A stretch of 64,000 nucleotides of DNA from Balanoglossus misakiensis (Eukaryota > Animalia > Hemichordata), in assembly GCA_040954595.2 (NCBI GenBank), contig CM082584.2, positions 2,077,344 through 2,141,343 of the forward strand, read 5' to 3'. A program made the position numbers and the translations under genes. Under the pieces are notes generated by a model. That model saw nothing but the letters and a program-made list of their open reading frames with translations, ran no database searches and was not told where the DNA came from. This document shows, piece by piece, positions 8,901 to 37,417 of this stretch (the first letter of the stretch is position 1; each line of letters begins with the position of its first letter).

Positions 8901-11753
8901 TGCAGACACGATTATGGAAAACCAAAGTCTCTACTCTTTGTAAAGATTTTATTTTATTTTCCATTCTAGTGTAAAGACACACACTATGTTGAGAGCTTCA
9001 ACAATGTTGCGCATCCCATTAAAAAAAACTCCTATAAATTCAGGAGTGATCTCACCTGTCTGGACTGGGTAAGTTTTATTTTATTTCCGAGTGTGTTCAT
9101 GTTTTCCCCATGATAATTTACAATGTTTCTGTGCAAGCTTATCACTGACAAAACAATAAAATATGACGCAGAAGCGAAAGTGGTGTCAACCAATACCAGG
9201 AAGAGTCGGCGAGGAAGGCAGTACAGGAGGAGGTCTGAGCGCAGGGTATTGACGGAAAAAAACAAGTCGTTGGAGGACCAATGTGTGGAGGCGTTTTGTC
9301 GAAGAAGTTTTTAGTGCCTCTCTGTAGAAACCCAGAGACGTATGCTCTAGTGCATACACATACCAAACGGCCCTTATCAGGGCCACCACATCCTTCAAAA
9401 AGAGAACTACCGTAATCACCAAAACACTTCGTAATAAAAAATTAAAAAGAAATGCACAAATCATTACACAGGCACACATACTCACATATAAAAGTGAATA
9501 AAGAAGTACACTACACACCCGAGGATATGACTTTGGTGTTATTTTAATGTACCATTCATTTTTGTCAAAAACAATCACCACTCAAAGAAAACTGCCAAAA
9601 ATAAAGATGTATCGCATTATAATATGTAAAATAATGTCGTCTCTTAAAAAACCTTAAACGGACTCTTCACTTCAGTGATGCCCGGATTTGATGAAATATC
9701 GAAACGTACGGAAACGCAGAAAGTCAGTCAAAGAATTGTTTTGCTATCAATCACGTGATCTGGCCATGTGACCCACGGCGTTGTCATTTCCAAGTGACGG
9801 GCAAGCAATATTTCGCCATTCAGTAAAAGATTTTTCCAAGTATGTTTTTATTTTAAAAACCGCCAGACACGTACCATGTATCAGGTATAATGCCTCCACG
9901 CTATTGAAGTTGCCCGTCATCTGGATATTTGAATGCTAACGTAACTGTGCCTGAGCGTGCGTGCTGCTGTACACGGGCGCGACAGCTTCACGAGTGCATA
10001 TAGCCGCGCCTATAGGCCCATGTCGCAATAGCAATAGATAGGACTTTCTACCTGCAAATCATGACGCACCAAGTATCAAGACATGCTGCCAATCATTTAT
10101 AGTTTTGGTAATTCGACTTGTATTCCTTTCATGTGGAATTTTCGACAAGCATCTGAGCTCCCTTCAAAAATTACCGACGCCACGATCGCGATTGTCAGCA
10201 ATTAAAACAATGCGGACATTTTCGCATCGTTCATTTCCGGGGATCAGTCTAGCTTGAACTGGGTTTGTATCGATGTCGATCTATAAACTTGATGATCGCG
10301 AATTCAGACATTTCAACGCCTATTTTGAGTAGCGATCCGCTCTCAAGTTGATAGGAAAATTATAGACAGGCCTGTGCCGAGCCGCCCCAGCCGTGCGCAA
10401 GTGGATTGACCGACGCGTGGTACGGTAGCCGGTCATGCATGCAGGATGACTGTTTTGCATGCTGCCGGCTGCGCCTCCAATCACAATTGCTTGAGGTCAA
10501 AGTCGTCATCAAGACGGTCCTGCCTCGCAGGACAAATGCAAGTAAGAATCAATACACGCTGATTTCAGATCATAGTGAGGTGAATACAGCTTCTTTGTGC
10601 GAGATTGCGTTGTAGGGCTTACTTTACAGAGCATTGTCCGAAGTTTCGCGATCGCATTCCAGAGCTTGCACCTGTGCGCGCTTGGGAGAATTGAGCGTCG
10701 AAGTGGTTAGAGCGATCGGCCTCTTGCTTTCCAGTTGACCGTAAACAGTCTCTACTGTACTCGTGTGCAGCTAGACCATGGCACGGCCGTTATCGTTATC
10801 TGTAATACCTAGCACCCTTTATAGGATTAGCTAAGGTGGTAAACTGTTGTGATTGGAGTGTGTTTTTAACGTACTGTAGGTTAAACATCGCAACTAGCCT
10901 AATGTTTGACTAGGAGGAGCACCTACTAATGCGAAAACCAGGGATTGAAAATTGCCCCTTTAAACATCGACAGACAAATGACACATTTTTCCCCCTTTAT
11001 TTTGTAGAACAGAAGTAAAATGTTCTTGGAGAAGCAAATTTAAATTGTTTTGTGTTCTTTTCACAATTTTAGAAAAATGAAATATGACGACAAGTTGACT
11101 GTAGAAACGGAAGGTTTGGGGTACTTTAGGCACATCACAGATAAATAAACACGAAACGCATTAATTTTTCAGCTGGAAAACTAAAGCCCTAGGCCTGCCC
11201 ATCAGTTTCCTCCCATAGACAACCTTCACAATGGGACACCATCCCTGTTTCGTTCAGGAATCTCCCTGGGTTACCTCCAGGGGACGTATAGAATGCATTA
11301 GTGACAATTAAAACGCCATCGACTTTATCCTGTATTATTTTGTAATATTTTCACGGAATCTGAGATTGAAAATTAAGTATTCCAACCATCAGCAATAATT
11401 TACTTTCAAAAAGTCTAACCGTTGAGAGCTATTTATAGAATAGAGTAATTTTGACATTAAGGCCGAACCCTGTTGTTGAGTATTAAGATTTAATTTTAAT
11501 TTTTCGATTAGTGATCTATTTCTTATGCATGAATGAAAAAAAATAATTGACAGATCTCAGTCTTACAGATGTTTATTTTATCACCATGGTAACAACTTCT
11601 TATCGGTATATAGAGGGTTGTTTGTCTCGTATCGCGCTACTGATATTGAAAAGTAACCTTCCTAATTTCAACAAGCTGTAAATTTTATAGACGTGTAACT
11701 CGTGCTCATTTTCTTCTTCTTCTTCTTCTTTTTAATTTCTGTGCCGACGGCTT

Positions 11754-11897
11754 CAGTGCCCAACGTTCGATTCTGGCAGGTGGTTTCGAAATTGGATTGT
11801 TGTATATGTGGACCAACGGCTTGTGGTCTGTCACAATGGTGAATTTCTGACCATATACATACAAGTGGAATCGTTCGCATGCCCATACAACGGCAAG
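11754..11897 (-). mobile_element. Ty3/Gypsy LTR retrotransposon Pol (RNase H) fragment
   Basis: Translates to LAVVWACERFHLYVYGQKFTIVTDHKPLVHIYNNPISKPPARIERWAL, the Gypsy RNase H TDHKPL...RIERW signature; no LTRs or other Pol domains nearby. Confidence 0.9.
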
Positions 11898-13869
11898 GCC
11901 GGGATCCAGCCGGGATCGAGCATTAAACATGAAGCAGACGACAAAAAGTGACAAGACGGGCATCGCGCGTGGCAAAGTGAAAAATATTTCCACAGAGCAA
12001 TTTCAAAATAAAACGTCCGTTAATTCAACAGTATTGTTGTTTTATTTATTTGGTTTAAACACGCGCGACTGTGGTTTTTGCTGCCATATGCTAGTTCAGC
12101 AGGGGCCCGTTTTAGCTCTGCCAGCAGTGCATTATGAGTATTTTAGCATCGCTGGATTGAGCTCTCGTCCAATCAGAATTGCGGACGGTAGCATGATATA
12201 ATATAATACTGTATATATACCATTTATATATTTGCGACAAAATTATGGTCATATATTGCCAAAGAAAACAATGGATTTCAAATAGAATTGTTTTATCAAA
12301 CTCTGGATATATTTATTATTTAGCAGCATTCAAAAATGGCTAACGATGCAGTTTTTAATTTATTAAATTCATCCATATCAAACACAGAAATGTTGTCTAC
12401 CTAGGATAGGATGACTAGAACAATCATCTATACAAAGTCAGTCCCCCCAGATCAATGAGAATAAAAAGTGCCTTGCTCAAGGGCACAAAATCATTGAAGT
12501 TTATGCCATTTCCACTCAAGTTGGACTGGAAGTCAAATATGAAGACATTTGTTGGAATTTCTCTTATCTCATATACTTATCTGCATTCTGATTGTGAGCT
12601 GATATGTTATGAGGGATTTTATTCTGAAATTGTTCTTTTTGGTGCTATGGTCTATTTATTTCCTAAGTGTCACATTCCACTGGAATGAATTGTCTCTCCC
12701 ATCAGAAAACAGCATCTAGACCCCCCCCTGGGGATACCAAATGATGACTCCCTGAGTACTTAACTCACTCCAAAATAAAATCAACCCAGTGCCAATTCTT
12801 CAAACATTTCAAGTAAAATTTGCCTGATAGAAGTTTCTCTTGATGAAAATCACTTGTGACTCTGAAGTGTTGCACAGAAAAGAACTTGTTTCTTTTTTTC
12901 TTTCTTCAAAGGGTGGAAAGTGTACCAGTCACAAATCAACGTCGTAACCAGGGTAACTACCAATTTCATGTCAAAGTTCATACATGCTATCCTCTGCTCG
13001 CATTAATAGCGATGTTTTGGGCGATTTCTGAGGGAGACTACACTTTCTACATGCTCAATCATGAAGGTAGCTGTGTTGTGATTGGTTATCTACACATTTG
13101 TCTCAGTCAGCAACCAATCAAAGCACAGCTTACTTTCCAGTAGTTGAGTGAAAAAACAAATCATTAAGTTGGTTATTTTCACAAAGATCAGTCCTCCAAA
13201 CTCTTCCATGTTTTTGTATTAAAGTGTATATGAAGTCGATTTGAAAAAAAAAAAGATTTTCATCACCTTGGTTTCATAAAAAAATAAACAATGTTCACCA
13301 TGGAGTTATAGCGGCCATTTTGAATTTCAAATTTGAGACAATTTTTGTCATTCAAATTTTTACGGTGAATAATTAATCTGTATTCTTTGTTTTAAGCAAG
13401 AATAATCTAAAGTTGTATTGAGGAGAATATGACTGATTTTGAAGGTGCACATTAAAACCAAACATGAGAAGCAGTAGGAATAGTTCATGTCTTGTATTGC
13501 AATAATTTGGCAGCCCGTGTTCAACTCGGGGGGTGGGGGGTGGGGGGGGGGGGGAATGCTAACAATGGACACACATATACACAAAAGATTGCAAAAGTAA
13601 AAGATTTATTTTGAACACATCAAGGATTTTAAAAACCTATAAAGAATCTTTCTGGCTGTGAAGAAGCAGTAAATAATTCATTTCTCAAGTCCTCATGAAA
13701 AAGAACTGTAAAACTGCAGTTATGGAAACTGCATTGCAAGGATTGGTAACAGATAATATTCATATCCAAGATGAGGTCATACATGGAATAACATTTAAAG
13801 GGACAAAATCTCTCTCTTGCTGCCATTTTTCTGTTAATTATGTTTGATACAAGACTGTGGATATATAGT

Positions 13870-13994
13870 GAATCAACGTTCGACCACCCACAACTTCCAT
13901 CCCACTTGTAGACACGAGAGTAAAACACTCGTCAAAATGAATAATCAGTCTCTACCGTTTATTCATTTTGGCGAGATTTTTACTCTTATATCCT
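13870..13994. repeat. Short dispersed repeat with internal hairpin (copy 2)
   Basis: Inverted homolog of 4380-4501; followed by TTAA (tcctTTAA), compatible with a TTAA-targeting non-autonomous element end. Confidence 0.65.
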
Positions 13995-15395
13995 TTAAAC
14001 AGGCATAATTTTGAATGATAAAGCGAAACTGATTCAAATTTTAAAATCAAGATGGCCACCATTCAATGTGTATTGAGAAAATTTGAAGTATTTTTATTTT
14101 TGAGAAAGCAAATTTTTTTCTGTTTTCAAAGTGACTCTTCCCACATTTTAATACTAAAAATATAAAGATATGTCGACCACCTAAATAGCATGTCTGCAAA
14201 ATGTGAATGGTGATGTCTGTATTAGTTTATAATTCAAAATTAAGAAAATAGTTTCTCAATCCTAATATGAATGATCTTGAAGTGACAACTTGTGTACATA
14301 GAAAAAAGATGTTGAGAGTGTGTTCAATGTAATTGAAAGCAAGAAGTGTATGACAACCTCTCTTAAATTGCATATTCTTGGTTAGTCATTTGCTTTTGGG
14401 AAATAGTACACATCAAAACTGAAGTCCAGAACATTACACAAAATCATTGTGAACATGTTCTTAACAAGTGTTTCAGATTTCTGCTTAAACTTATTGGAAT
14501 TATTGTTAGTGCAATTTGAAACAAACTAACTCTTTACAAACTAATTTGGCTTTACAAATCAGAGACATTGTATACTGACAGGATATGTATGTTTCAGCTT
14601 TTTTGGCTCAAAATGAACATCTGCAAAACATAGAGTGAATTTCCTAAATCTGTCAACAAACAAAAGTAATGTTTCTACTGAAGATATTGATGATCAGGAT
14701 TAAAAATATTACTGTACAGCTTTTTGGTGAAAACAATAATTTGAATAAAAAATGTTGCAACAAATCACAAAAATCACTAGAATTTTTAAAAAATCAACTT
14801 TATTTTGCTATAATGGTCATTGATGTCATTAGCTGCAGTTTGTAAACTCAACATGACAATTTCTTAGTTGTCACTTTCTCATAATTGTAATTGACTCACT
14901 TTATTTGCATGTGTCTCCATCCTGTGAAGCTGACATGACATCATGTTCCTTAGAGTGATTTAATTTGTAATTAACCATTACATACACTTCAAATAGGTCA
15001 GTATCTGCAGGATGGTCTTGTACTGTATTTGGGTAATTCACTTTCTGTTATCTCATGCTAGATCTATGTCACAGATTCCATTCATTTATCTTTAGTTGTG
15101 TCACCTGTTGGTAGCTGTTTCTGCAATCACCATCTCCTCGTTGTACAGCCTGGTTATTGAGAAGACAGTAATGGTGGAGGGTGGTTTGGTGTATTGGCTT
15201 TGATTTCTCTGCAGGGCTTATAACAGTATGTGTGTACGGAACCTTTTCCTTGCACACACACATTACGTTACTCAGTTAAATTTCTCAGACATTGCAACAA
15301 GTTCCATGGAAATACTGCCATCGTTTGCCATACTAATCAGAAATTGATATACTGACGTCACAATGGTCTGCTTCAGAGATGTTGATGTCATCATC

Positions 15396-16655
15396 TTAAG
15401 ATGTAAGATGTAGATTAGCCATGTCACCTTCAACATCATGATGATCAGCTGACACACCAAGTTTTCGGAACATCTCATGTATTTCTTCTCTGGCAGCGTA
15501 GACATCACAACTTTCTTGCTCAAAATTTTTAACCAGGTTGGAAAAATTGCTCTTACAGAATTTCTTATCTGCAGTTGGCTGTTGGCCTGCACGTTGTTGT
15601 CCTCCACAGCCCTTGGACCAAACAGATAAAGCATGTTGTGTTGGGGATTGAATCAATGCACTGTATTGCCATGAATCCACCTCCATGCGAGGGATCCCCA
15701 TCAAGTCTGCCATAGCCCTGTAGTCATTGCCGGATAAACGGATGATATCCATGATATTAGAAAATATCTTGAGGGCATCCTTCAGCATCCACTTGACATC
15801 ACTTTCATATCCACTGTGTCAGAGGATGGTTGTATCATACCCAGCACAAAGAAAGTCAGTAGCTGCTTCTGAAATCACCATCTCCTCGTTGTACACCTTC
15901 TCATTCCTCTCTTCTGCTTCCCGAATTTGCTTCAATGTATAGAATGTGACATCTTCAGGGTTGCGATGGATTCGAAGAGAATCTGAACTCAACACGTGGA
16001 TGTCAAGTCTTGTACCAGGACAGCAGATCTCTAACACTTCATAGACAATATCAGTTATTGTCTCTAATAATTTGTAGCACTCGCCGATTTCCTCTTCTTT
16101 CTCTGCTCTAACACAAACATGGATAGCTCTCCAACCTTTTGTCATATACACCAAGCCTTCTGCATTGTGACACACTTTGATGCCATTTTTCCATATACCA
16201 CTTGTCCGTCGGTTGATCTTTCGGAAATGGCGTTCTATTCGGGCGTTAAGTCGGGGAGAAAATCCTGGCGAGAAACTATCAGCATCATCTCTGCATTGGA
16301 ACCGTCTACCATAGTAAATCTTCTTAGTAGCATCCTGTTTCCACTGATTTGCAGGCATATCTGTGTCCAACAACTCAGGTATTACATACCCAGTTACAGT
16401 ATTGGATTCAGAAATGACCTCATAGAGAAGGGCAAACTCTTTGAGAAGATTTATCAGCAAATCAATATCTGCCAGACCATGGAAAACTTCCTCAATTTCG
16501 CTTCTCATATGTAAGGACTTCCGCGGCAAGCGGTTTGCAAACTGCTCAAATATTTCAGGAGCCAGCATGGTACCGAATATTCTAGAACATAACCATTGGG
16601 GATCAAGAACAATGACGTCATCTGAATCTGGTAGGGTACTCTCGATTTGGAACAT
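15396..16655 (-). pseudogene. Terminal exon of a DAPK1-like ROCO gene (COR domain + C-terminal death-domain-like region) with in-frame TGA
   Basis: Acceptor ...TTCACAG at 16657-16656. ORF 16655-15819 has IVLDPQWLCSRIFG, YVIPELL, YYGRRFQC, FSPGFSPRL and IWKNGI (COR of DAPK/ROCO). It continues in the same frame past TGA 15821-15819 into GNDYRAMADLMG...QSPTQHALSVW (death-domain-like) to the stop at 15396. Upstream exons not seen in the window. Confidence 0.78.
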
Positions 16656-17059
16656 CTGTGAATAAACAATGGGGAAAAATACTTATGTTTTGAGACATTT
16701 ATTCAAATGAAATTGTGCATATATCTTAGTGACACACATACCAGTATGTAGATGTGTGCATGGCTGATCATACATAGGGAAACCGCGAAACCCAGGCCAA
16801 GTCTAGCCTTGCCTGGCCAAACCATCTCGGCTATAGTGATCGAAAAAAAACTCATCAACGCCACAATATTGCCACTGGTGATTTAGGAACAATGTCAGGG
16901 CTATACCCACACTAGTGACACACATGGACCACAAAAACATGTTTATAGCAGAGGGCCTTTTCTGGGTTTTTTTCTCAGTCTTGAATCCCTGTCTAGATCC
17001 TCAGCAAAAGGCTCTGTCAAGCCTTTCACCCTCAGATCCCTCTTAAGAGAACCCAGCCT

Positions 17060-17353
17060 GTGATTGGAACTGCGCTGAGTACTACAGCTGGCCTCCAAGG
17101 CGCAAGACCGTGGCGTGTATGTACACTTTTCGTGTCCCGGCTGAATCCAGCAACAACATGTGAAAATGTTGAGCGCTATGCTGCAGACAAATTTGATGTA
17201 GGTGTGAACTGTACAAAACTGAAAACAAAGTATGATATGTATGCTTCTTTTATGGTTGAATTATCTGATGTAGACATTAGAGTTGCCCTTGATCCTGTAA
17301 ATTGGCCTCAGGATACTCTTGTAAGAAAATACTATAAATCTCAGACGCCATGA
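17060..17353 (+). pseudogene. LINE ORF1 C-terminal part
   Basis: LFVSRLNPATT...CTKLKTKYDMYASFMV...LDPVNWPQDTLVRKYY, a typical non-LTR ORF1 tail; its TGA overlaps the ORF2 ATG (ATGA, 17350-17353). Confidence 0.8.
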
Positions 17354-18966
17354 CAAAACGCAAAAATAGTTTACGGATTGTGTCATTTAACTGTCGCTCT
17401 GTGAAATCAAGCTTTCATTCTGTGTATGAATTATGTGAAACCCATGATATCTGTCTTTTACAAGAACACTGGCTTGCTAAGGAAGAGCTGTCAATTTTAC
17501 ATGACATACATCTGGATTTTATGTCATTCGGAGTATCTGCTTTTGATTCGTCTGAACTCCGTATTGGTAGACCGTACGGGGGGGTTGCAATTCTTTGGCG
17601 TAGATCGCTTGGCAAACTTGCCAGTATTGTTGAGTTTGCTGATAGTCGCTTGCTTGGTTTAGTTTTAGAAAATGATACTGACAAACTTGTTATTGTAAAC
17701 TGTTATTTGCCCACCAATACTAATGATAATTTTGAAGTGTTCAGTGAGTACTTGGCGAAAATCAATTCCATTGTTTCTGATATTAACACTGGGAATGTCT
17801 TTTTTATTGGTGACTGGAATGCTGATGTAACTACTGATACAGGCTTTGGCCGTGAGTTGATGGAGCATTGTGAGCAATTTGGTTACATCGTTTCTGATGT
17901 TGAGCTGCTAGGCAGGGATTCTGGTACGTTTACTTAGATTAGCGATGCTCATGGCAGTACTTCATGGATTGACCACTGTGTTACCACTGAAGTTTCTCAT
18001 AGCAATGTTCTTTCAAGTTCGAGCCTTTGCAATGTTGTTGACTCCGACCATATTCCTGTTTCAATAGAGGTTCATTTCAACACTTCTGCTGATGAAAGCT
18101 TCAGCAGTAGTTCCTTCAAGCAATGTAATTTTCGAGTTGATTGGAAAAAAATTGTCACAGCAGAATATATCCGCCTACACCCTTGTACCAAAGCCAAGAT
18201 TGATAAGATTAATTTATCCGAACAGTTATTCTGCACTAATGTGAACTGTACAGACCCTTCGCATTTACAGGCAATTGATACTTGTTATAGTAGTATTGTG
18301 GACGCATTGAATTGTGCTGCAAAATATACCATTAGGGGTAAGTTTCACCAGAAAGTTCATGTTGTACCTGGCTGGAACGATTTTGTAAAAGAAAGTCACG
18401 ACTATGCCCGTTCCATGTTTTTTATTATGGGTTAATGGGGGTAAACCTAAACAAGGCCCGCTTTTTGAAACCATGAAATCTTTCAGAGCTCGTTTTAAGT
18501 ATGCTTTACGTGCTTGTAAAAAGATTGAGAATCAAAATAGGGCTGACAAGATGGCTGACAATTTATGCTGCCACAAACAGAACGACTTCTGGAAGGAAGT
18601 CAGAAAGCAAACTAGCAGAAAAACGCCACTTTCTGACACTGTAGGTGGAGCGACTGGTGAGAGTGAAATTGCAATTATGTGGCACAAGCATTTCAGTGAT
18701 ATTTTGAATTCTGTCCAGGCTCAGACTGGTAAAAATGACATCGAGGAGAAAATGAAGTATGTTAACTTTTCTTCTGATATGTATGTTTCTGAAGACGAAG
18801 TAATTTCTGCTATACACAAGTTACCTGACGACAAGACAGCTGGCATTGACAATATTTCAGCTGAGCACCTCAAATTCTCAGACTCCTCTATTTTACCATT
18901 TTGACTTGTTGTATTAATGCTATGATTGTTCATGGTTACCTGCCAACTGAGGCTATCAAAGTTATT
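17350..18966 (+). pseudogene. LINE ORF2 (AP endonuclease + linker + RT start), RTE-X-like, 5' piece
   Basis: APE motifs SFNCRS, LLQEHWL, GRPYGGVAILW, NCYLP, IGDWNAD, SWIDHC, DSDHIP; linker VPGWNDFVK...GGKPKQG...RARFKYALR; KTAGIDNISAEHL. TAG at 17935-17937 plus several frameshifts; broken at ...HGYLPTEAIKVI by cluster 1. Confidence 0.88.
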
Positions 18967-21900
18967 AGGGCCCAAGCGCATACCAGCGCTTGGGCCCTAT
19001 TGGTTTCGTTGGGGTTTTTCTGTCTTTAGGGCCCAAGCGCATACCAGCGCTTGGGCCCTATTGGTTTCGTTGGGGTTTTTCTGTCTTTCTTTAGGGCCCA
19101 AGCGCATACCAGCGCTTGGGCCCTATTGGTTTCGTTGGGGTTTTTAGGGCCCAAGCGCAAGCAAGCGCTTGGGCCCTATTGGTTTCGTTGGGGTTTTTAG
19201 GGCCCAAGCGCGCGCAAGCGCTTGGGCCCTATTGGTTTCGTTGGAATTTTTCTTTCTTTATTCTCCTGTCAATTCTTCGGCCAACTAAATCTCTGAAACT
19301 ACTGCAGGTACACTGCTCAAACTTACTACAGTGGTCAAGGTCAATGAGTAGATGTGCAGTGGCTCGTGAATATTTAATTAGTCACGTGACCTGGCGGCCA
19401 TATTGGATTTTCTGAAAAAATGTAAATGACTTCTTCTCAAAAACTACAAGGCAAATCAAGTTCAAATTTGGTACATAGTACACATGGCCTCTGCCCAACA
19501 AAGTTTGATAATAAGATCTCGAGCGGTCACGTGACTTTGGCCGCCATATTGGATTTTCGAAAAATCCAACTAAAACTTCAAAAATCTTCTTCTCAAGAAC
19601 CGGCGATAACCGAGTCGCGGGATTTGGGGTATGTGGTCACCTAACTGATGTCTATCAAGTTTGATAAGAAGCATTGTGATTGGTCGAAGATTATGGCGGC
19701 CATATTGGATTTTCGAAAAACCATAGTAAAACTGCAAAAATCTTCTTCTCCAGAACGGGCGATAACTGAGTCGCAAGATTCGGGGAGTATGGTCACTACA
19801 CTGATGTCTATCCAGTTTGCAAAGAGCATTGTGATTGGTCGAAGATTATGGCGGCCATATTGGATTTTGTAAAAAGCAGTGAAAACTTGAAATTCCTTTT
19901 CCTAGTCTAAAAATTGATAGCATACAAATTTTTTTCATGGATATCAATCGTCATATGACTAAAATATGTTACAAATTTTTGGCGATTTTTCACATGACCT
20001 TTGACCTACTTTTCACACGATATTATTTCTGCATATCTATTTTCTGGCTAACCTATAGGGCTAGACGTTTGGTTTTTGATGCATGTGGATTAGTGTGTGA
20101 TCAAAATATTTTGCTACTTTTCATGACCCCTTTGACCTCTGTTGACCTCATTAATTATGTGCATCGCTAATTACAAGCGAACCAATAAAGCTAGTGGTTT
20201 GGTTTTTGTTGGAAATGGACCAGAATGGGGTCAATTTTTTTTGCCCAAATGTTGCATGACCTCTGGTGACCTTTGACCTACTTTCGCATATCTTAGCATC
20301 CAGAGCAGATACAGCCTTGGCATTTGGCAGGATGGGACGAAAATGTAAAGCCACATTTTTGGGTCACCTGTGACACCTGCTGACCTCATTAAATATGCAC
20401 ATACCTAATTACAGACGAACCAATAGAGCTAGAGTTTTGGTTTTTGTTGGACATGGACAAATATGGGTCAAAAAAATTTCCCAAAATTTAGATGACCTCA
20501 GGTGCCCTTTTACCTACTTTACTCTATTTCTGCAGCAAAAATACATACGTCCTTGTTATGTCATGAGATAAAAAACATGATAGAGCATTCTGTTTCTTCT
20601 CATTCATACTGTGCATATGTAATTCAAGATCAGCGCTTGGGCCCGACAATGCTGCTTGCAGCTTTAATTCTTTCTTTCTTTCTTTCTTTCTTTCTTTATT
20701 CTCCTGTCCATTTTTTATCGCTCTAGATCTCAGACACCGCTGCAGGTACAGTTCTCAAACTTGCTACAGTGGTCAAGGTCAATGAGTAGTCGTGCATTGA
20801 ACCCATGAATTTTTAATTAGTCACGTGACATGGCGGCCATATTGGATTTTCTGAAAAAATGCAAATCTCAGATCTCAGAAACTACAAGTCAGATTTACTT
20901 CAGATTTGGCGTGTTGGTAGTGTACCTTCTGCCCATCATTTTTGTAATTGGATATTTTGCTGTCAATGTTGCAGTTTTTTTGCTACAGTTGTTTTTCTGA
21001 AATCTGGTCAAAATTTCAAAAATCTTCTTCTCCAGAACCGGCGATAACGGAGTCACGCGGTTTGGGGTATGGGGTCACCTATCTGAGGTCTATCAAGTTT
21101 GCGAAGATCATTGTGATTGGTCGAAGATTATGGCGGCCATATTGGATTTTCGAAAAACCATAGTAAAACTCCCAAAATCTTCTTCTCCAGAACGGGCATA
21201 ACTGAGTCACAAGATTCGGGGAGTATGGTCACTACACTGATGTCTATCAAGTTTGCAAAGAACATCGTGATTGGTCGAAGATTATGGCGGCCATATTGGA
21301 ATTTGTAAAAAGCATTGAAAAATTGAAATTCCTTTTTCTAGTCTAAAAATTGATAGCATAGAAATTCTTTGTATGGATATCAATCGTCATGTGACTAAAA
21401 TATGTTACAAATTTTTGGCGATTTTTCACATGACCTTTGACCTACTTTTCACATGTTATTATTTCTGCATATCTAATTCCAGGCTAACCTATAGGGCTAG
21501 ATGTTTGGTTTTTGATGCATGTGGATAAGTGTGTGATCAAAATATTTTGCTACTTTCCATGACCCCTTTGACCTCTGCTTACCTCATTAATTATGTGCAT
21601 AGCTAATTACAGGCGAACCAATAGAGCTAGAGGTTTGGTTTTTGTTGGACATGGACCTGTATGGGATCAACATTTTTTGCCCAAATGTTGGGTGACCTCT
21701 GGTGACCTTTGACCTACTTTCGCATATCTAAGCATCCAGAGCAGATACAGCCATGGCATTTTGACAGGATGGGACCAAAATGTAAAGCCACATTTTTGGG
21801 TCACCTGTGACACCTGCTGACCTCATTAAATATGCACATACCTAATTACAGGCGAACCAATAGAGCTAGAGTTTTGGTTTTTGTTTGACATGGACCAGTA

Positions 21901-24900
21901 TGGGTCAAAAAAATTTGCCCAAATGTTGGGTGACCTCAGGTGACCTTTGACCTACTTCACCCTATTTCAGCAGCAAAAATACACATGTCCTTGTTATGTC
22001 ATGAGATAATACACCCGATAGAAAATTCTGTTTCTTCTCATTCATACTGTGCATATATAATTCGAGACCAGCGCTTGGGCCCGACAATGCTGCTTGCAGC
22101 TTTAATTCTGTCTTTCTTTCTTTCTTTATTCTTCTGTCAATTCTTTGTCGCTCTAGATCTCAGACACCGCTGCAGGTACACTTCTGAAACTTGCTACAGT
22201 GGTCAAGGTCAATGAGTAGTCGTGCATTGAACCCTTGAATTTTTAATTAGTCACGTGACCTGGCGGCCATATTGGATTTTCTGGAAAAATGCAAATCTCA
22301 GATCTCAGAAACTACAAGTCAGATCGACTTCAAATTTGGTGTGCAGGTAGTCTACCTTCTACCCATCATTTTTGTAATTGGATATTTTGCTGTAAATGTT
22401 GCAGTTTTTTTGCTACAATTTTTTTTCTGAAATCTGGCTTAAATTTCAAAAATCTTCTTCTCCAGAACCGGTGATAACTGAGTCACGCGGTTTGGGGTAT
22501 GTGGTCACCTAACTGATGTCTATCAAGTTTGCGAAGATCATTGTGATTGGTCGAAGATTATGGCGGCCATATTGGATTTTCGAAAAACCATAGTAAAACT
22601 TCAAAAATCTTCTTCTCAAGAACGGGCGATAACCGAGTCACAAGATTTGGTGTGTGAGGTCATTCAACAGATGTCTATCAAGTTTGCGAAGGGGAATGTG
22701 ATTGGTCGAAGATTATGGCGGCCATATTGGATTTTGTGAAAAACGATTAAAAAGTAAAAATTCCTTTTCTAGCCTAAAAATTGATAGCACAGAAATTCTT
22801 TTTATTGATATGAATCATCATATGACAAGAATAAGCTATAAATATTTTGGTAATTTTGGCAATGACCTTTGACCTACTTTTGACGCATCATTTTTCTGCA
22901 TATCTAATTCCAGGCTAACCAATAGGGCTATAAGTTTGGTTTTTGATGTATGTGGATTTGTATGTGATCAAAAAATTTTGCTACTTTTCATGACCCCTTT
23001 GACCTCTGGTGACCTCATTAAATATGCGCATACCTAATTAATGATGAACCAATAGACCTAGAGGTTTTGTTTTTGTTATACATAGACCAGTATGGGGTCA
23101 AAATATTTTGCCCAAATGTTGGGTGACCTCGGGTGACCTTTGACCTACTTTTGCATATCTCGACATCCACAGCAGATACAGCCTTGGCGTTTGGAGGTAT
23201 GGAGCCATAATGAAAAGCCAAAGTTTTGGGTCACCTGTGACACCTGCTTAACTCATTATTTATGTGCATACCTAATTCCGGGCTAACCAAAAGGGCTAGA
23301 GGTCTGGTTTTTGTTGGACATGGACCACTATGGGTCAAAATTTTCTGCCCAAATTGTGGGTGACATCTGGGTGACCTTTGACCTACTTAACACTATGTCA
23401 ACACCAAACATGGATATAACCTTGATATTTCATGGGGTAAAACAGCATTATGTTTCTACTCATTAATTATGTGCATATCTAATAATCAGATCAGATAATA
23501 GAGCTTGGGCCCGGACAATGCTGCTTGCAGCTTTAATTCCTTCTTTATTCTTGTGTCATTTCTTTGTCGCTCTAGATCTCAGACACCGCTGCAGGTACAC
23601 TTCTCAAACTTGCTACAGTGGTCAAGGTCAATGGGTAGTCGTGCATTGAACTCTTGAATTTTTAATTAGTCACGTGACATGGCGGCCATATTGGATTTTC
23701 TGAAAAAATGCAAATCTCAGATCTCAGAAACTACAAGTCAGATCGACTTCAAATTTGGTGTGCAGGTAGTCTACCTTTTACCCATCATTTTTGTAATTGG
23801 ATATTTTGCTGTAAATGTTGCAGTTTTTTTGCTACAATTTTTTTTCTGAAATCTGGCTTAAATTTCAAAAATCTTCTTCTCCAGAACCGGTGATAACCGA
23901 GTGACGCGGTTTGGGGTATGTGGTCACCTAACTGATGTCTATCAAGTTTGATAAGAAGCATTGTGATTGGTCGAAGATTATGGCGGCCATATTGGATTTT
24001 CGAAAAACCATAGTAAAACTGCAAAAATCTTCTTCTCCAGAACGGGCGATAACTGAGTCGCAAGATTCGGGGAGTATGGTCACAACACTGATGTCTATCA
24101 AGTTTGCAAAGAGCATTGTGATTGGTTGAAGATTATGGCGGCCATATTGGATTTTGTAAAAAGCAGTGAAAAATTGAAATTCCTTTTCCTAGTCTAAAAA
24201 TTGACAGCATACAAATTCTTTTCATGGATATCAATCATCATATGACTAAAATATGTTACAAATTTTTGGCGATTTTTCACATGACCTTTGACCTACTTAT
24301 CACGCGTTATTATTTCTGCATATCTAATTCCAGGCTAACCTATAGGGCTAGACTTTTGGTTTTTGATGCATGTGGATTAGTGTGTGATCAAAATATTTTG
24401 CTACTTTTCATGACCCCTTTGACCTCTGCTGACCTCATTAATTATGTACATAGCTAATTACAGGCGAACCAATAAAGCTAGAGGTTTCGTTTTTGTTGGA
24501 CATGGACCAGTATGGGATCAAAATTTTTTGCCCAAATGTTGGGTGACCTCTGGTGACCTTTGACCTTCTTTCGCATATCTCAGCATCCAGAGCAGATACA
24601 GCCTTGGCATTTTGTAGGATGGGACCAGAATGTAAAGCCACATTTTTGGGTCACCTGTGACACCTGCTGACCTCATTAAATATGCACATACCTAATAACA
24701 TCCGAACCAAAAGAGCTAGAGTTTTGGTTTTTGTTGGACATGGACCAGTATGGGTAAAAAAAAATTGCCCAAATGTTGGGTGACCTTAGGTGACCTTTGA
24801 CCTACTTCACCCTATTTCAGCAGCAACAATATATACATCCTTGTTATGTCATGAGATAATACATCCGTTAGAAAATTCTGTTTCTTCTCATTCATACTGT

Positions 24901-27900
24901 GCATATATAATTCAAGATCAGCGCTTGGGCCCGACAATGCTGCTCGCAGCTTTAATTAGGGCCCAAGCGCATACCAGCGCTTGGGCCCTATTGGTTTCGT
25001 TGGGGTTTTTAGGGCCCAAGCGCATACCAGCGCTTGGGCCCTATTGGTTTCGTTGGGGTTTTTCTGTCTTTCTTTCTTCTTTCTTTATTCTTCTGTCATT
25101 TCTTTGTCGCTCTAGATCTCAGACACCACTGCAGGTACAGTTCTCAAACTTGCTACAGTGGTCAAGGTCAATGAGTACTCGTGCATTGAACCCATGAATT
25201 TTTAATTAGTCACATGACCTGGCGGCCATCTTGGATTTCCTGAAAAAATGCAAATCTCAGATCTCAGAAACTACAAGTCAGATCGACTTCAAATTTGGCG
25301 TGCAGGTAGACTACCTTCTGTCAAACATTTTTGTAATTGGAAATTATGCTGTCAATGTTGCAGTTTTTTTGCTACAATTTTTTTTCTGAAATCTGGCTTA
25401 AATTTCAAAAATCTTCTTCTCTAGAACCGGTGGTAACCGAGACACGGGGTTTGGGGTATGTGGTCACCTAACTGATGTCTATCAAGTTTGCGAAGATCAT
25501 TGTGATTGGTCGAAGATTATGGCGGCCATATTGGATTTTCGAAAAACCCTAGTAAAATTTCAAAAATCTTCTTCTCGAGAACCGGTGATAACCGAGTCAC
25601 AAGATTTTGTGTGTGTGGTCATTCCCCAGATGTCTATCAAGTTTGCGAAGAGGAATGTGATTGGTCGAAGATTATGGCGGCCATATTGGATTTTGTGAAA
25701 AACGATTAAAAAGTAAAAATTCCCTTTCTAGCCTAAAAATTTATAGCACAGAAATTCTTTTTATGGATATGGATCATCATATGACTACAATATGCTATAA
25801 ATATTTTGGTAATTTTGGCAATGACCTTTGACCTACTTTTGACGCATCATTTTTCTGCATATCTAATTCCAGGCTAACCAATAGGGCTATAAGTTTGGTT
25901 TTTGATGTATGTGGATAAGTGTGTGATCAAAATTTTTTGCTACTTTTCACGACCCCTTTGACCCCTGCTGACCTCATTAATTATGTGCATAGCTAATTAC
26001 AGGCGAACCAATAGACCTAGAGGTTTTGTTTTTGTTGGACAGGACTAGTATGGGGTCAAAAAATTTTACCCAAATGTTGGGTGACCTCTGGTGACCTTTG
26101 ACCTACTTTTGCAAATATCAGCATCCACAGCAGATACAGACTTGGCGTTTGGAGGTATGGGGCCATAATGAAAAGCCAAAGTTGTGGGTCACCTGTGACA
26201 CCTGCTTAACTCATTATTTATGTGCATACTTAATTCCGGGCTAACCAAAAGTGCTATAGGTCTGGTTTTTGTTGGACATGGACCACTATGGGTCAAAATT
26301 TTCTGCCCAAATTATGGGTGACCTCTGGGTGACCTTTGACCTACTTAACACTTTATCAGCACTAAACATAGATATAACCATGATATTTCATGGGATAAAA
26401 CACAGCATTATGTTTCTACTCATTAATTATGTGCATATCTAATAATCAGATCAGATAATAGAGCTTGGGCCCGGACAATGCTGCTTGCAGCTTTAATTCT
26501 GTCTTTCTTTCTTTATTCTTCTGTCATTTCTTTGTCGCTCTAGATCTCAGACACCGCTGCAGGTACACTTCTCAAACTTGCTACAATGGTCAAGGTCAAT
26601 GGGTAGTCGTGCATTGAACTCTTGAATTTTTAATTAGTCACGTGACATGGCGGCCATATTGGATTTTCTGAAAAAATGCAAATCTCAGATCTCAGAAACT
26701 ACAAGTCAGATCGACTTCAAATTTGGTGTGCCGGTAGTCTACCTTCTGCCCATCATTTTTGTAATTGGATATTTTGCTGTCAATGTTGCAGTTTTTTTGC
26801 TACAGTTGTTTTTCTGAAATCTGGTCAAAATTTCAAAAATCTTCTTCTCCAGAACCGGCGATAACCGAGTCACGCGGTTTGGGGTATGTGGTCACCAAGC
26901 TGAGGTCTATCAAGTTTGCGAAGATCATTGTGATTGGTCAAAGATTATGGCGGCCATATTGGATTTAAAAAAAAAACTAGTAAAATTTCAAAAATCTTCT
27001 TCTCAAGAACCGGCGATAACTGAGTCACAAGATTTGATGTGTGTGGTCATTAAACAGATGTCTATCAAGTTTGCGAAGAGGAATGTGATTGGTCAAAGAT
27101 TATGGCGGCCATATTGGATTTTGTGAAAAACGATTAAAAAGTAAAAATTCCCTTTCTAGCCTAAAAATTGACAGCACAGAAATTCTTTTTACGGATATGA
27201 AACATCATATGACAAGAATAAGCTATAAATATTTTGGTAATTTTGGCAATGACCTTTGACCTACTTTTGACGCATCATTTTTCTGCATATCTAATTCCAG
27301 GCTAACCAATAGGGCTATAAGTTTGGTTTTTGATGTATGTGGATTTGTATGTGATCAAAAATTTTTGCTACTTTTCATGACCCCTTTGACCTCTGGTGAC
27401 CTCATTAAATATGCGCATACCTAATTAATGATGAACCAATAGACCTAGAGGTTTTGTTTTTGTTATACATGGACCAGTATGGGGTCAAAATATTTTGCCC
27501 AAATGTTGGGTGACCTCGGGTGACCTTTGACCTACTTTTGCATATCTCGACATCTACGGCAGATACAGCCTTGGCGTTTGGAGGTATGGGGCCATAATGA
27601 AAAGCCAAAGTTTTGGGTCACCTGTGACACGTGCTTAACTCATTATTTATGTGCATACCTAATTCCGGGATAACCAAAAGGGCTAGAGGTCTGGTTTTTG
27701 TTGGACATGGACCACTATGGGTCAAAATTTTCTGCCCAAATTGTGGTTGACCTCTGGGTGACCTTTGACCTACTTAACACTATATCACCACAAAACATAG
27801 ATATAACCTTGATATTTCATGGCATAAGACACAGCATTATGTCTCTACTCATTAATTATGTGCATATCTAATAATTAGATCAGATAATAGAGCTTGGGCC

Positions 27901-29342
27901 CGGACAATGCTGCTTGCAGCTTTAATTCTTTCTTTTTTCTTGTGTCATTTCTTTGTCGCTCTAGATCTCAGACACCGCTGCAGGTACACTTTTCAAACTT
28001 GCTACAGTGGTCAAGGTCAATGGGTAGTCGTGCATTGAACTCTTGAATTTTTAATTAGTCACGTGACATGGCGGCCATATTGGATTTTCTGAAAAAATGC
28101 AAATCTCAGATCTCAGAAACTACAGGTCAGATTTACTTCACATTTGGTGTGCTGGTAGGGTACCTTCTGCACATCATTTATGTAATTGGATATTTTGCTG
28201 TCAATGTTGCAGTTTTTTTGCTACAGTTGTTTTTCTGAAATCTGGTCAAAATTTCAAAAATCTTCTTCTCCAGAACCGACGATAACCAAGTCACGCGGTT
28301 TGGGGTATTTGGTCACCAAATTGAGGTCTATCAAGTTTGCGAAGATCATTGTGCTTGGTCGAAGATTATGGCGGCCATATTGGATTTTTGAAAAACCCTT
28401 GTAAAATTTCAAAAATCTTCTTCTCAAGAACCGGCGATAACCGAGTCACAAGATTTGGTGTGTGTGGTCATTAAACAGCTGTCTATCAAGTTTGCGAAGA
28501 GGAATGTGATTGGTCAAAGATTATGGCGGCCATATTGGATTTTGTGAAAAACGATTAAAAAGTAAAAATTCCCTTTCTAGCCTAAAAATTGATAGCACAA
28601 AAATTCTTTTTATGGATATGAATCATCATATGACAAGAATAAGCTATAAATTTTTTGGTAATTTTGGCAATGACCTTTGACCTACTTTTGACTCATCATT
28701 TTTCTGCATATCTAATTCCAGGCTAACCAATAGGGCTATAAGTTTGGTTTTTGATGTATGTGGATTTGTATGTGATCAAAAAATGTTGCTACTTTTCATG
28801 ACCCCTTTGACCTCTGCTGACCTCATTAAATATGCACATACCTAATTAAAGGTGAACCAATAGACCTAGAGGTTTTGTTTTTGTTATACATGGACCAGTA
28901 TGGTGTCAAAATATTTTGCCCAAATGTTGGGTGACCTCGGGTGACCTTTGACCTACTTTTGCATATCTTGACATCCACAGCAGATACAGCCTTCGCGTTT
29001 GGAGGTATGGGGCCATAATGAAAAGCCAAAGTTTTGGGTCACCTGTGACACCTGCTTAACTCATTATTTATGTGCATACCTAATTCCGGGCTAACCAAAA
29101 GAGCTAGAGGTCTGGTTTTTGTTGGACATGGACCACTATGGGTCAAAATTTTCTGCCCAAATTGTGGGTGACATCTGGGTGACCTTTGACCTACTTATAT
29201 CAGCACCAAACATAGATATAACCTTGATATTTCATGGGATAAAACACAGCATTATGTTTCTACTCATTAATTATGTGCATATCTAATAATCAGATCAGAT
29301 AATAGAGCTTGGGCCCGGACAATGCTGCTTGCAGCTTTAATT
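18967..29342 (+). mobile_element. Cluster 1: seven nested Helentron-type non-autonomous (HINE-like) elements
   Basis: Heads (AGGGCCCAAGCGC-loop-GCGCTTGGGCCCT ATTGGTTTCGTTGG) at 18967, 19028, 19093, 19146, 19199, 24958, 25011; tails (GCTTGGGCCC subTIR + GCTGC-tt-GCAGC hairpin + TTTAATT) ending 20669, 22107, 23538, 24957, 26498, 27927, 29342; TT junctions; (TTCT)n after the head. Confidence 0.88.
25011..26498 (+). mobile_element. Example uninterrupted HINE-like element (~1.49 kb)
   Basis: Head, microsatellite, ~120-bp ATGGCGGCCATATTGG subrepeats, TGACCTTTGACCT subrepeats and tail are contiguous; no coding capacity. Confidence 0.85.
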
Positions 29343-29445
29343 TTAGTTCCAATTATTAAGGATAAAACTAAGCTTTGTAGTGATGCCAGTAACTACCGGC
29401 CGATAGCACTAGCAACTGTTTTCTCTTAAGTTTTTGAGCATATTT
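29343..29445 (+). pseudogene. LINE ORF2 continuation (RT N-terminal motif)
   Basis: LVPIIKDKTKLCSDASNYRPIALATVFS*VFEHI continues in frame from AIKVI at 18966 once cluster 1 and the duplicated TT are removed. Confidence 0.92.
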
Positions 29446-32400
29446 GGGGGCACAAGCGCCCTCAGGCGGCTTGTGCCCCCATTGTTATTGTTGGAATTTT
29501 TCTTTATTACGGGCCCAAGCCAAGCCAGGCTTGGGCCCGTATTGGTTTCGTTGGAATTTTTAGGGCCCAAGCCAAGCCAGGCTTGGGCCCTATTGGTTTC
29601 GCTGGTATTTTTCAGTCTTTCTTTCTTTCTTTCTTTCTTTCTTTATTCTTATGTCAATTCTTTGTCGCTCTAGATACCAGACACCACTGCAGGTACAGTT
29701 TTCAAACTTGCTACAGTGGTCAAGGTCAATAAGTAGTCGTGCATTGAACCCATGAATTTTTAATTAGTCACGTGACATGGCGGCCATATTGGATTTTCTG
29801 AAAAAATGCAAATCTCAGATCTCAGAAACTACAAGTCAGATCGACTTCAAATTTGGCGTGCAGGTAGACTACCTTCTGTTAATCATTTTTGTAATTGGAA
29901 ATTATGCTGACAAAGTTGCAGTTTTTTTGCTACAATTTTTTTTCTGAAATCTGGCTTAAATTTCAAAAATCTTCTTCTCCAGAACCAGTGATAACCGAGA
30001 CACGGGGTTTGCGGTATGTGGTCAACTAACTGATGTCTATCAAGTTTGCGAAGATCATTGTGATTGGTCAAAGATTACGGCGGCCATATTGGATTTTCGA
30101 AAAACCCTAGTAAAATTTCAAAAATCTTCTTCTCAAGAACCGGCGATAACCGAGTCACAAGATTTGGTGTGTGTGGTCATTAAACAGATGTCTAACAAGT
30201 TTGTGAAGGGGAATGTGATTGGTCGAAGATTATGGCGGCCATATTGGATTTTGAGAAAAACGATTAAAAAGAAAAAATTCCCTTTGTAGCCTAAAAATTA
30301 ATAGCACAGAAATTATTTTTATGGATATGAATCATCATATGCCAAGAATAAGCTCTAAATATTTTGGTAATTTTGGCAATGACCTTTGACCTACTTTTGA
30401 CGCATCATTTTTCTGCATATCTAATTCCAGGCTAACCAATAGGGCTATACGTTTGGTTTTTGATGTATGTGGATTTGTATGTGATCAAAAAATGTTGCTA
30501 CTTTCATGACCCCTTTGACCTCTGCTGACCTCATTAAATATGCACATACCTAATTACAGGTGAACCAATAGACCTAGAGGTTTTGTTTTTGTTATTCATG
30601 GACCAGTATGGGGTAAAACTATTTTGCCCAAATGTTGGGTGACCTCGGGTGACCTTTGACCTACTTTTGCATATCTTGACATCCACAGCAGATACAGCCT
30701 TGGCGTTTAGAGGTATGGGGCCATAATGAAAAGCCAAAGTTTTGGGTCACCTGTGACACCTGCTTAACTCATTATTTATGTGTATACCTAATTCTGGGCT
30801 AACCAAAAGGGCTAGAGATCTGGTTTTTGTTGGACATGGACCACTATAGGTCACAATTTTCTGCCCAAATTGTGGGTGACCTCTGGGTGACCTTTGACCT
30901 ACTTAACACTATATCAACACCAATAATAGATATAACCTTGATATTTTATGGGGTAAAACACAGCATTATGTTTCTACTCATTAATTATGTGCATATCTAA
31001 TAATCAGATCAGATAATAGAGCTTGGGCCCGGACAATGCTGCTTGCAGCTTTAATACTTTCTTTCTTTCTTTATTCTTGTGTCAATTCTTTGACCCACGA
31101 GATCTCAGACACCGCTGCAGGTACACTTCTGAAACTTGCTACAGTGGTCAAGGTCAATGAGTAGTCGTGCATTGAACCCTTGAATTTTTAATTAGTCACG
31201 TGACCTGGCGGCCATCTTGGATTTTCTGAAAAAATGCAAATCTCAGATCTCAGAAACTACAAGTCAGATCGACTTCAAATTTGGCAAGCTGGTAGACTAC
31301 CTTCTGCCCATCATTTTTGTAATTAGAAATTATGCTGACAAAGTTGCAGTTTTTTGCTACAATTTTTTTTCTGAAATCTGGCTTAAATTTAAAAAATCTT
31401 CTTCTCCAGAACCAGTGAAAACCAAGACACGGGGTTTTGGGTATGTGGTCACCTAACTGATGTCTATCAAGTTTGCGAAGATCATTGTGATTGGTCGAAG
31501 ATTATGGCGGCCATATTGGATTTTCGTAAAACCCTAGTAAAATTTCAAAAATCTTCTTCTCAAGAACCGGCGATAACTGAGTCACAAGATTTGGTGTGTG
31601 TGGTCATTAAACAGATGTCTATCAAATTTGCGAAGAGGAATGTAATTGGTCGAAGATTATGGCGGCCATATTGGATTTTGTGAAAAACAATTAAAAAGTA
31701 AAAATTCCCTTTCTAGCCTAAAAATTGATAGCACAGACATTCTTTTTATGGATATGAATCATCATATGCCAAGAATAAGCTATAAATATTTTGGTAATTT
31801 TGGCAATGACCTTTGACCTACTTTTGACGCATCATTGTTCTGCATATCTAATTCCAGGCTACCCAATAGGGCTATAAGTTTGGTTTTTGATGTATGTGGA
31901 TTTGTATGTGATCAAAAAATTTTGCTACTTTTCATGACCCCTTTGACCTCTGGTGACCTCATTAAATATGCGCATACCTAATTAATGATCAACCAATAGA
32001 CCTTAGAGGTTTTGTTTTTGTTATACATGGACCAGTATGGGGTCAAAATATTTTGCCCAAATGTTGGGTGACCTCGGGTGACCTTTGACCTACTTTTGCA
32101 TATCTCGACATCCACACCAGATACAGCCTTGGCGTTTGGAGGTATGGGGCCATAATGAAAAGCCAAAGTTTTGGGTCACCTGTGACACCTGCTTTACTCA
32201 TTATTTATGTGCATACCTAATTCCGGGCTAACCAAAAGGGCTAGATGTCTGGTTTTTGTTGGACATGGACCACTATGGGTCAAAATTTTCTGCCCAAATT
32301 TTGGATGAACTCAGATGACCTTTGACCTACTTTTGCATATATCGGCATCCAAAGCAGGTACAGTCTTGGCATTTGGAGGTATGGGGCCATAATGAAAAGC

Positions 32401-35783: not shown

Positions 35784-36687
35784 TTATCACATGAACTGGC
35801 CCTGATCACCACCTGTGTGACGTAGACCAGGACAGATCAAAAATCCTGATCACCCCTGTGTTACGTCATCAACCGGAACTATTTCCACCGATTCGCCGTA
35901 GCTTTGTTGTCAAACAGAAACAGTACGTGTAGCGCGCGGCATTTACAATACAGAAATGAAATAAAAAAATTACGGTTCCATGACAATAACGCTTTGTAAG
36001 CTCAAAACAGAAAGGTGGAATTTGGAAAGAAGACAGTCGACGCAACGATCATGGACGATCGTGGCTGTCAAAGTTTTGGGTCAGGTGTACATAGCCTAGG
36101 CTAGGCGCAAGTCCGGTACGTTCCGAGTCGAATCAGCGTGGGGAATTGTTTCGAGCCAGTTCAGCGTGACGACTGAACCTCTCTATTGCACCGGTCAACG
36201 AAATGTATAAGACGTGGCAACAGGTTGCAGTAAAATTGTTAGAGAATCGATTACATTTGTGTAAGGCCGAACTTCGAGCGAACGGAACTCAACGGGACGA
36301 CTTGTTGGGAGATTTTATGAATGATCAGCGATAGTTCACCATTTGCGTATATGCAAATGATGAACTATCGCTGATCATTCATAAAATCTCCCAACATATA
36401 TCTCCTGGGGGACATAATCCCGCTCAGTAAAATACGACACCGCTCCAAAATTGTTGCAAGGTACTGAATTGTTTTAGTCCTGCCTCTTCTAACGAAAAAT
36501 AAGAAGACTGTTCATGTGATAAATATATAATCCCATGATATCTTTCTTTGTTTAACGTCATCGTATACTCGTGGTTTTCGCGGAAGCGTACAACTTCTCG
36601 CCTGCGGCTCGAAGTTGCACTGCTCCGCGAAAACCACTCGTATACGATGACGTCAAACAAAGAAAGATATCATGGGATTATATGTAA
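35784..36687. mobile_element. Unclassified ~0.9-kb non-coding insertion (TTA...TAA ends, no clear TSD) inside a HINE body
   Basis: Interrupts the conserved AAAACACA|GCATTATG; 13-bp inverted repeats TTATCACATGAAC (35784-35796 / 36510-36522); then a ~160-bp foldback 36525-36683. Confidence 0.75.
36303..36396. repeat. 94-bp spacerless palindrome
   Basis: 47-bp arms TGTTGGGAGATTTTATGAATGATCAGCGATAGTTCA...; 2 mismatches, no loop. Confidence 0.9.
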
Positions 36688-37417
36688 GCATTATGTTTCT
36701 TCTCATTAATTATGTGCATATCTAATAATCAGATCAGATAATAGAGCTTGGGCCCGGACAATGCTGCTTGCAGCTTTAATTCTTTCTTTATTCTTATGTC
36801 AATTCTTTGTCGCTCTAGATCTCAGACACCACTGCAGGTACAGTTTTCAAACTTGCTACAGTGGTCAAGGTCAATGAGTAGTCGTGCATTGAACCCATGA
36901 ATTTTTAATTAGTCACGTGACCTGGCGGCCATATTGGATTTTCTGAAAAAATGCAAATCTCAGATCTCAGAAACTACAAGTCAGATTGACTTCAAATTTG
37001 GCGTGCAGGTAGAATACCTTCTGTCAATCATTTTTGTAATTGGAAATTATGCTGACAAAGTTGCAGTTTTTTTGCTACAATTTTTTTTCTGAAATCTGGC
37101 TTAAATTTCAAAAATCTTCTTCTCCAGAACCGGTGATAACCGAGACACGGGGTTTAGGGTATGTGGTCACCTAACTGATGTCTATCAAGTTTGCGAAGAT
37201 CATTGTGATTGGTCGAAGATTACGGCGGCCATATTGGATTTTCGAAAAACCCTAGTAAAATTTCAAAAATCTTCTTCTCAAGAACCGGCGATAACCGAGT
37301 CACAAGATTTGGTGTGTGTGGTCATTAAACAGATGTCTAACAAGTTTGCGAAGGGGAATGTGATTGGTCGAAGATTATGGCGGCCATATTGGATTTTGTG
37401 AAAAACGATTAAAAAGA

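Follow-up and report, generated by a model that had tools for sequence, protein, structure and literature searches.

At positions 18967-29342 of a 64-kb window of assembled DNA from the hemichordate Balanoglossus misakiensis (contig CM082584.2) lies nest 1, a group of seven transposons of ~1.48 kb each. Most probably, these accumulated as new copies inserted one after another, all in the same orientation, into the T-rich leader that directly follows the 5′ hairpin in copies already present. This reading is carried by direct observations, namely the parse of the nest, the lengths of the parsed elements, the register of the long interspersed nuclear element (LINE) that hosts them, the clustering of insertion points, and a window-wide fit to a last-in-first-out (LIFO) pairing of 5′ ends ("heads") with headless bodies and their 3′ ends ("tails"). 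The window also contains two further nests, nests 2 and 3, outside the interval first reported. Positions are counted from the first base of the window.

Structure of nest 1 and of its elements

Read from left to right, nest 1 consists of five heads, four bodies, two more heads and three bodies, or ((((( )))) (( ))). The seven heads start at 18967, 19028, 19093, 19146 and 19199, and then at 24958 and 25011, while the seven tails end at 20669, 22107, 23538 and 24957, and then at 26498, 27927 and 29342. A stack parser, which excised the innermost head-to-tail unit at each step and was iterated, paired 7/7 heads and tails with none left over. The excised elements have normal lengths (1469, 1489, 1482, 1482, 1486, 1480 and 1474 bp). 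The layout, the equal head and tail counts and the break and resume points given by the original prediction were all recovered.

Two of the elements, all of which are on the plus strand, are intact. These are the innermost element 5 (19199-20669), in which a hairpin at the head is followed by the (CTTT)n leader, two 155-bp repeats and the tail, and element 7 (25011-26498). The other five are split. The outermost head 1 (18967-19027), cut after CTGTCTTT, has its partner body at 27928-29342, where the nest closes. Heads 2 (19028-19092), 3 (19093-19145) and 4 (19146-19198, of the CAAGC-loop type) pair with the headless bodies and tails at 23539-24957, 22108-23538 and 20670-22107, respectively. 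Head 6 (24958-25010), directly 3′ of the tail ending at 24957, pairs with 26499-27927. Four of the five interrupted heads share one loop type. CTGT opens the bodies at 22108 and 26499 and is absent from the start of those at 23539 and 27928. The nest-1 bodies are all distinct (pairwise identity 81-96%), and that of element 2 is a mosaic, with a type A leader and a type B remainder.

The host of nest 1 is a dead LINE ORF2 (second open reading frame). Its left part (17338-18966, +) runs from the endonuclease domain (Pfam Exo_endo_phos, E=5.7e-9) to just before the reverse transcriptase domain, and its continuation follows in register for 103 bp (29343-29445, +). When the two flanks were searched separately, the residue numbering of the homologs was continuous over the nest (308/309 in P0001, 532/533 in P0003, 301/302 in P0004, 513/514 in P0006). 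After excision, the junction had no gaps against 9/9 homologs, of which eight contain RVT_1. A Pfam search of the 28-residue right flank gave no match. The frame therefore resumes right after the seventh tail, as predicted. The LINE carries stops and frameshifts elsewhere, so that excision restores the local register but not a contiguous ORF2.

The copies are non-coding elements, likely of the Helentron type (HINE), with the anatomy of DINE-1/HINE elements. Each starts with the arm GGGCCCAAGC of the 5′ subterminal inverted repeat (subTIR). The motif GCTTGGGCCC occurs twice in the same orientation: it forms the second hairpin arm at the 5′ end, and about 25 bp from the 3′ end it forms the 3′ subTIR, with a match of 10-12 bp depending on the tail type. 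The element ends 23-24 bp behind this 3′ subTIR. The 5′ hairpin has a 14-bp stem (-18.9 kcal/mol, z=-6.6, 0/200 shuffles as good) and is followed by a T-run and the (CTTT)n leader. The body contains two units of 154-156 bp and further internal repeats. A 3′ palindrome with 5-bp arms, GCTGC/GCAGC, is present in 29/29 matched tails, and the tails fold no better than shuffled sequences (z +0.9 and +1.2). Rfam gave no matches at gathering scores in 18900-31200.

The elements end in TT-AGGG and TTTAA, lie in T|T sites, and 29/29 heads are preceded by TT. These ends do not agree with a canonical Helitron (HLE1: 5′ TC, 3′ CTRR, A|T insertion). The subTIRs, the 5′ hairpin, the microsatellite leader, the ~155-bp tandem repeats and the TT insertion all support the Helentron/HINE-type anatomy first proposed. 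A TT duplication upon insertion, also part of the original prediction, is improbable. One junction pair (head junction 50639) has six T on the left and one on the right; this fits a TT carried by the element, with entry one base further into the T-run, so that it is probably not a target duplication.

Insertion sites, pairing order and nests 2 and 3

The insertion points are concentrated in a small part of the element. Of the 29 heads in the window, the LINE received two and a body one; the remaining 26 lie within leaders of other copies, each oriented like its host copy. Thus, of 27 insertions into family DNA, 26 hit a 60-bp zone that follows the hairpin and contains 165 of the 2533 TT sites (~6.5%) in the eight intact copies (P=4e-30, or 4e-24 with same-strand sites only). 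The share of the zone is only 3.8-6.5% whether TT, TTT or TTTT sites are counted, and the many T-runs of the bodies received one insertion. Twenty of the 26 insertions lie 22-26 bp behind GCTTGGGCCC, 16 of them behind heads and four behind tails; tail-head junctions make up 6/26. The proposed preference for the T-rich stretch behind the element's own 5′ hairpin, or after its own tail, is therefore supported here.

The pairing was scored with a type rule taken from the eight intact copies, by which heads with a CAAGC loop go with type B bodies and the others with type A, and CTGT does not occur twice. Throughout the window, LIFO pairing satisfied the rule for 16/19 interrupted heads, compared with 11-13 for first-in-first-out pairing and a mean of 11.7-12.6 for random order-respecting pairings (P=0.033 by leader type, P=0.008 by whole-body type). 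A test based on sequence distance gave P=0.0012 with 60 bp and P=0.0007 with 150 bp of body. For head 32828, the LIFO body is 97.9% identical to that of the sole intact copy with the same rare head. For head 50750, the rebuilt leader is almost the same as the one in the intact copy 56116. LIFO also joins the left junction at 50639, with six T, to a tail with a single T.

The bodies do not show the pattern of a satellite grown by tandem duplication, in which neighbours would be more alike than distant units. Neighbouring bodies are 89.0% identical and others 88.3% (21 vs 385 pairs, diverged sister element excluded; P=0.14), in agreement with the original prediction. The best match of a body is its neighbour for 2/30 bodies in the window and for 0/7 in nest 1.

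Nest 2 (29446-64000, +) starts 103 bp further into the LINE, has 14 heads and 13 tails within view, and is open at the window end. Nest 3 (37419-50856, -) lies inverted within a nest-2 body, which rejoins exactly across it, and has eight heads and nine tails. Targeting crosses family lines, as two diverged sister families act as host or guest. The outermost nest-2 head (29446-29508) belongs to a sister family with a different subTIR and hosts three insertions, and a sister element at 51668-53129 in nest 2, with about 60% identity to the family, sits in a leader. No family copies were found in window positions 1-18966.

Recombination has also shaped these nests. A segment of about 2.6 kb inside one nest-2 body (60003-62610, +) comprises a copied tail/body junction, an element at 60219-61382 that entered this junction later, and a 222-bp duplication. 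It copies the junction region 54324-55445 with identities of 215/216 and 930/931. Once it is removed, a 1425-bp body is restored, a second 6-T junction finds a 1-T tail as partner, and the leader of head 55956 resembles the one in the intact copy that carries the same head type. The element at 60219 follows the copied tail, has no head in front of it, and is missing from the source junction 54539. Provided that the segment is indeed a duplication, a tail-side site can thus serve as a target and the hairpin is not required. In nest 3, the extra body (37419-38847, -) is 99.4% identical to the nest-1 body 26499-27927. An origin of the outer two nest-3 bodies as a composite copy of nest-1 elements 6 and 7 was rejected because of the scattered differences, 63 in all, between bodies 25064 and 40282. 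The claim that the array was built by self-insertion rather than by unequal crossing-over is therefore overstated: recombination has added headless bodies as well, in the nest-2 segment and probably in nest 3.

Bodies are mosaics of subtypes. Short bodies of ~1.11 kb with similar shortened 3′ ends occur at three separate places, 60272-61382, 46543-47659 (-) and 40283-41389 (-), which suggests a subfamily derived by deletion and mobile in its own right. Two unrelated insertions are also found. A 771-bp element with long terminal inverted repeats (TIRs) starting with GGCTAG and an 8-bp target duplication (42883-43653) splits a nest-3 head, and an insertion of ~0.9 kb (approximately 35784-36688), with palindromes of 78 and 47 bp and a 13-bp inverted pair, lies in a nest-2 body.

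Further features lie to the left of the nests. Broken transposase-like reading frames (DUF7869, E=2.9e-10) between a 58-bp inverted pair at 2115-6656 are likely a decayed DNA transposon. Reading frames at 15272-16682 (-) resemble COR-B weakly (E=1.2e-4, below the Pfam cut-off) and may represent the 3′ portion of a ROCO/death-domain gene. A 108-bp inverted pair (4383-4632 and 13561-13989; 85% identity, 9.4 kb apart), with further inverted arms, may represent two copies of another small element.

Formation of the nests and competing explanations

We suggest that donors at other loci are copied by a RepHel transposase whose gene lies elsewhere, because the bodies differ by 4-20% and belong to different subtypes. 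Each copy would bring its own TT and enter a T|T site without duplication. Every insertion would push the host body away, so that heads accumulate to the left and bodies without heads to the right. Later ectopic recombination and slippage would add or remove units, which would keep the bracket balance close, but not strict. The cue could be GCTTGGGCCC, for which we see nearly an even chance. Since an element ends 23-24 bp behind its own copy of this motif, the T-run 22 bp behind a head would look like the 3′ cut site, and the enzyme would nick it as a target. The main alternative, somewhat less probable, is that the pyrimidine/T-rich leader tract itself is the cue; it is unlikely to be both motif and tract, or something else.

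Several points speak against this view of nested, targeted insertion, or limit it. No RepHel reading frame of at least 120 aa was found in the 64-kb window; the Helentron membership therefore rests on structure. The window was selected for its nests, so that our figures describe positions within elements and not a genome-wide rate, and the spacing to GCTTGGGCCC is not fixed (29-53 bp in 6/26 insertions). A second 1-T tail (40285), with a 5+1 junction, does not fit T conservation. LIFO pairing misses the type rule in 3/19 pairs under each definition, and the type table was coded by hand, with features picked after viewing the data. The distance test loses its signal with 400 bp of body (P=0.35). 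In nest 1 alone, 4 or 16 of the 48 order-respecting pairings score as well (distance test P=0.25), and in nest 3 alone LIFO reaches P=0.20. The raw nest 2 contains two pairs that fit only after post hoc removal of the recombinant segment. The predicted LIFO order therefore holds window-wide (P 0.0007-0.03), whereas nest 1 by itself does not exceed chance and the proof comes from nests 2 and 3. Likewise, the predicted balance of heads and tails is exact in nest 1 but not strict, as nest 3 is unbalanced. Finally, among 30 distinct tails of a related family described below, none is followed by a headless body, on short contigs which neither show nor exclude stacks.

Separate amplification in place of 53-bp heads and of headless bodies, by slippage or unequal crossing-over and with a merely coincidental balance, would account for the identity of several adjacent heads, the recombinant segment, the extra body and the subtype mosaics. 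We consider it quite improbable, because neighbours are not closest relatives, head loops and cut points differ as LIFO predicts, and both the LINE and the host body rejoin exactly; it explains the exceptions, not the pattern. The tail-head junctions, here and at 3/30 outside sites, might instead point to rolling-circle products with multiple or truncated ends that were inserted as ready-made concatemers, as proposed for plant Helitrons by Xiong et al. 2016 (many 5′ ends, one 3′ end; according to passages of PMC12628747 and PMC8268682), or to end-bypass. One circle, however, predicts near-identical copies, full or 3′-truncated, whereas here several subtypes of head precede bodies that differ by 4-20%. 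Moreover, the composite-copy origin of the extra nest-3 body failed on its scattered differences, and this explanation is very improbable.

Nested but untargeted insertion, in which the leader is taken merely as T-rich DNA, draws on the T/C microsatellite nature of the leader and on the preference of HINEs for T-rich sequence (in the available part of PMC4067079). It can hardly explain why a zone with so few of the T-run sites received nearly all insertions, in one orientation, and its probability is very small; a preference for a longer pyrimidine-tract motif was counted within targeted insertion, not here. An assembly artefact would find its best argument in the 931-bp nest-2 stretch duplicated with a single mismatch. 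It is extremely improbable, given that the nest-1 bodies are all distinct, the flanks rejoin to the base, and the secondary insertions bear their own target duplications.

The target choice of Helitron-like elements is poorly known, and arrays derived from Helitrons are usually explained by unequal exchange or by rolling-circle concatemers. The paired ends of the nest show a third route to such arrays. Subfamilies can be dated relative to each other from the nest order, with no need for a clock, and a target rule is predicted, either 22-26 bp behind a subTIR or the leader tract. Programs or curators that annotate repeats are likely to label such arrays as satellites or fragments and to miscount the insertions. 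As a tentative generalisation, somewhat less than evenly probable in our estimate, animal Helentrons may use terminus mimicry to target their own kind: their transposase would bind the subTIR motif of a resident copy and nick the T-tract 22-26 bp behind it, just as at the 3′ end of the element itself. Each insertion would provide two new landing pads, and stacks would therefore grow autocatalytically into satellite-like arrays that store the order of insertion. If true, such targeting would amount to a general safe-harbour strategy and to a way, so far unrecognised, in which transposons become satellite DNA, and it would suggest that a short sequence directs Helitron insertion.

Comparison with related DNA and known systems

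A pattern for the head had no matches in metagenome contigs. A tail pattern was found at 34 metagenome-contig loci (L001-L034), and at none in prokaryote genomes or viral contigs. These loci share with the present family only the last ~32 bp, which are about 90% conserved and include the 3′ palindrome; otherwise they represent an unrelated family in other animal DNA. One locus (L002), which looks like a match by chance, was dropped by eye, and three sites are each represented by two loci, which leaves 30 distinct tails. Three of these run straight into a head and one meets an oppositely oriented head. The latter, at about 1266-1350 of L011, lies close behind the hairpin of that head.

The elements most similar in structure are DINE-1/HINE, the non-autonomous Helentrons (Thomas et al. 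2014, PMC4067079; oyster Cg_HINE, PMC7492417), and this and the following comparisons draw on the accessible portions of the cited sources. Shared features are a 5′ subTIR with an adjacent inverted repeat, a 4-nt microsatellite, central tandem repeats of ~155 bp, a 3′ subTIR with, less clearly, a short palindrome, TT insertion without target modification, and the lack of coding capacity. The 3′ subTIR lies about 25 bp from the end here, compared with 38-60 bp in mite HINEs. While the DINE-1/HINE descriptions cover clustering and T-rich targets, the copies studied here insert into their own leader and form bracket-paired stacks. No description of a bracket-paired stack or of leader targeting was found in the literature searched, with most subscription journals outside reach, and Table S6 and Fig S11 of the Fusarium work discussed below may bear on this. 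The consulted parts of PMC11417382, PMC13085455 and PMC4224331 mention nested or composite elements, with no such stack.

Arrays and multimers of transposons are known from other organisms. The plant centromeric Helitron arrays of Xiong et al. 2016 (summarised in PMC12628747 and PMC8268682) are, like the nests described here, Helitron-derived tandem arrays with unequal termini, but they consist of 3′-truncated rolling-circle products, whereas our arrays consist of 5′-less bodies from different donors. The rice miniature inverted-repeat transposable elements Castaway and Gaijin form multimers by independent self-insertion (Jiang and Wessler 2001, via PMC5172404). In contrast to the present family, they are cut-and-paste TIR elements, described there with neither a fixed landing zone nor a deep stack. 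At the "shuffled" Helitron/satellite loci of Crassostrea gigas, parts of Helitrons are truncated, tandemised and inserted in other elements (PMC12628747). These loci are described as scrambled, without an ordered parse, unlike our nests.

The closest precedent for the stacked heads is FoHeli (HLE2) of Fusarium, in which repeated 5′ termini were ascribed to self-insertion, as a proposal (Chellapan et al. 2016; PMC5148889, PMC13342296). Its short 5′ ends measure 31-85 nt, with up to five termini in a 2026 paper. The remark in the original prediction that no description of the stack architecture was known thus holds only in part: no complete bracket-paired stack was found in the sources at hand, but stacked 5′ termini by self-insertion had already been proposed. 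Both systems repeat short 5′ ends, and in both these are explained by self-insertion. FoHeli, however, combines several 5′ ends with one 3′ end, whereas in Balanoglossus misakiensis the displaced bodies and tails are kept, are paired in LIFO order, and show a narrow target zone.

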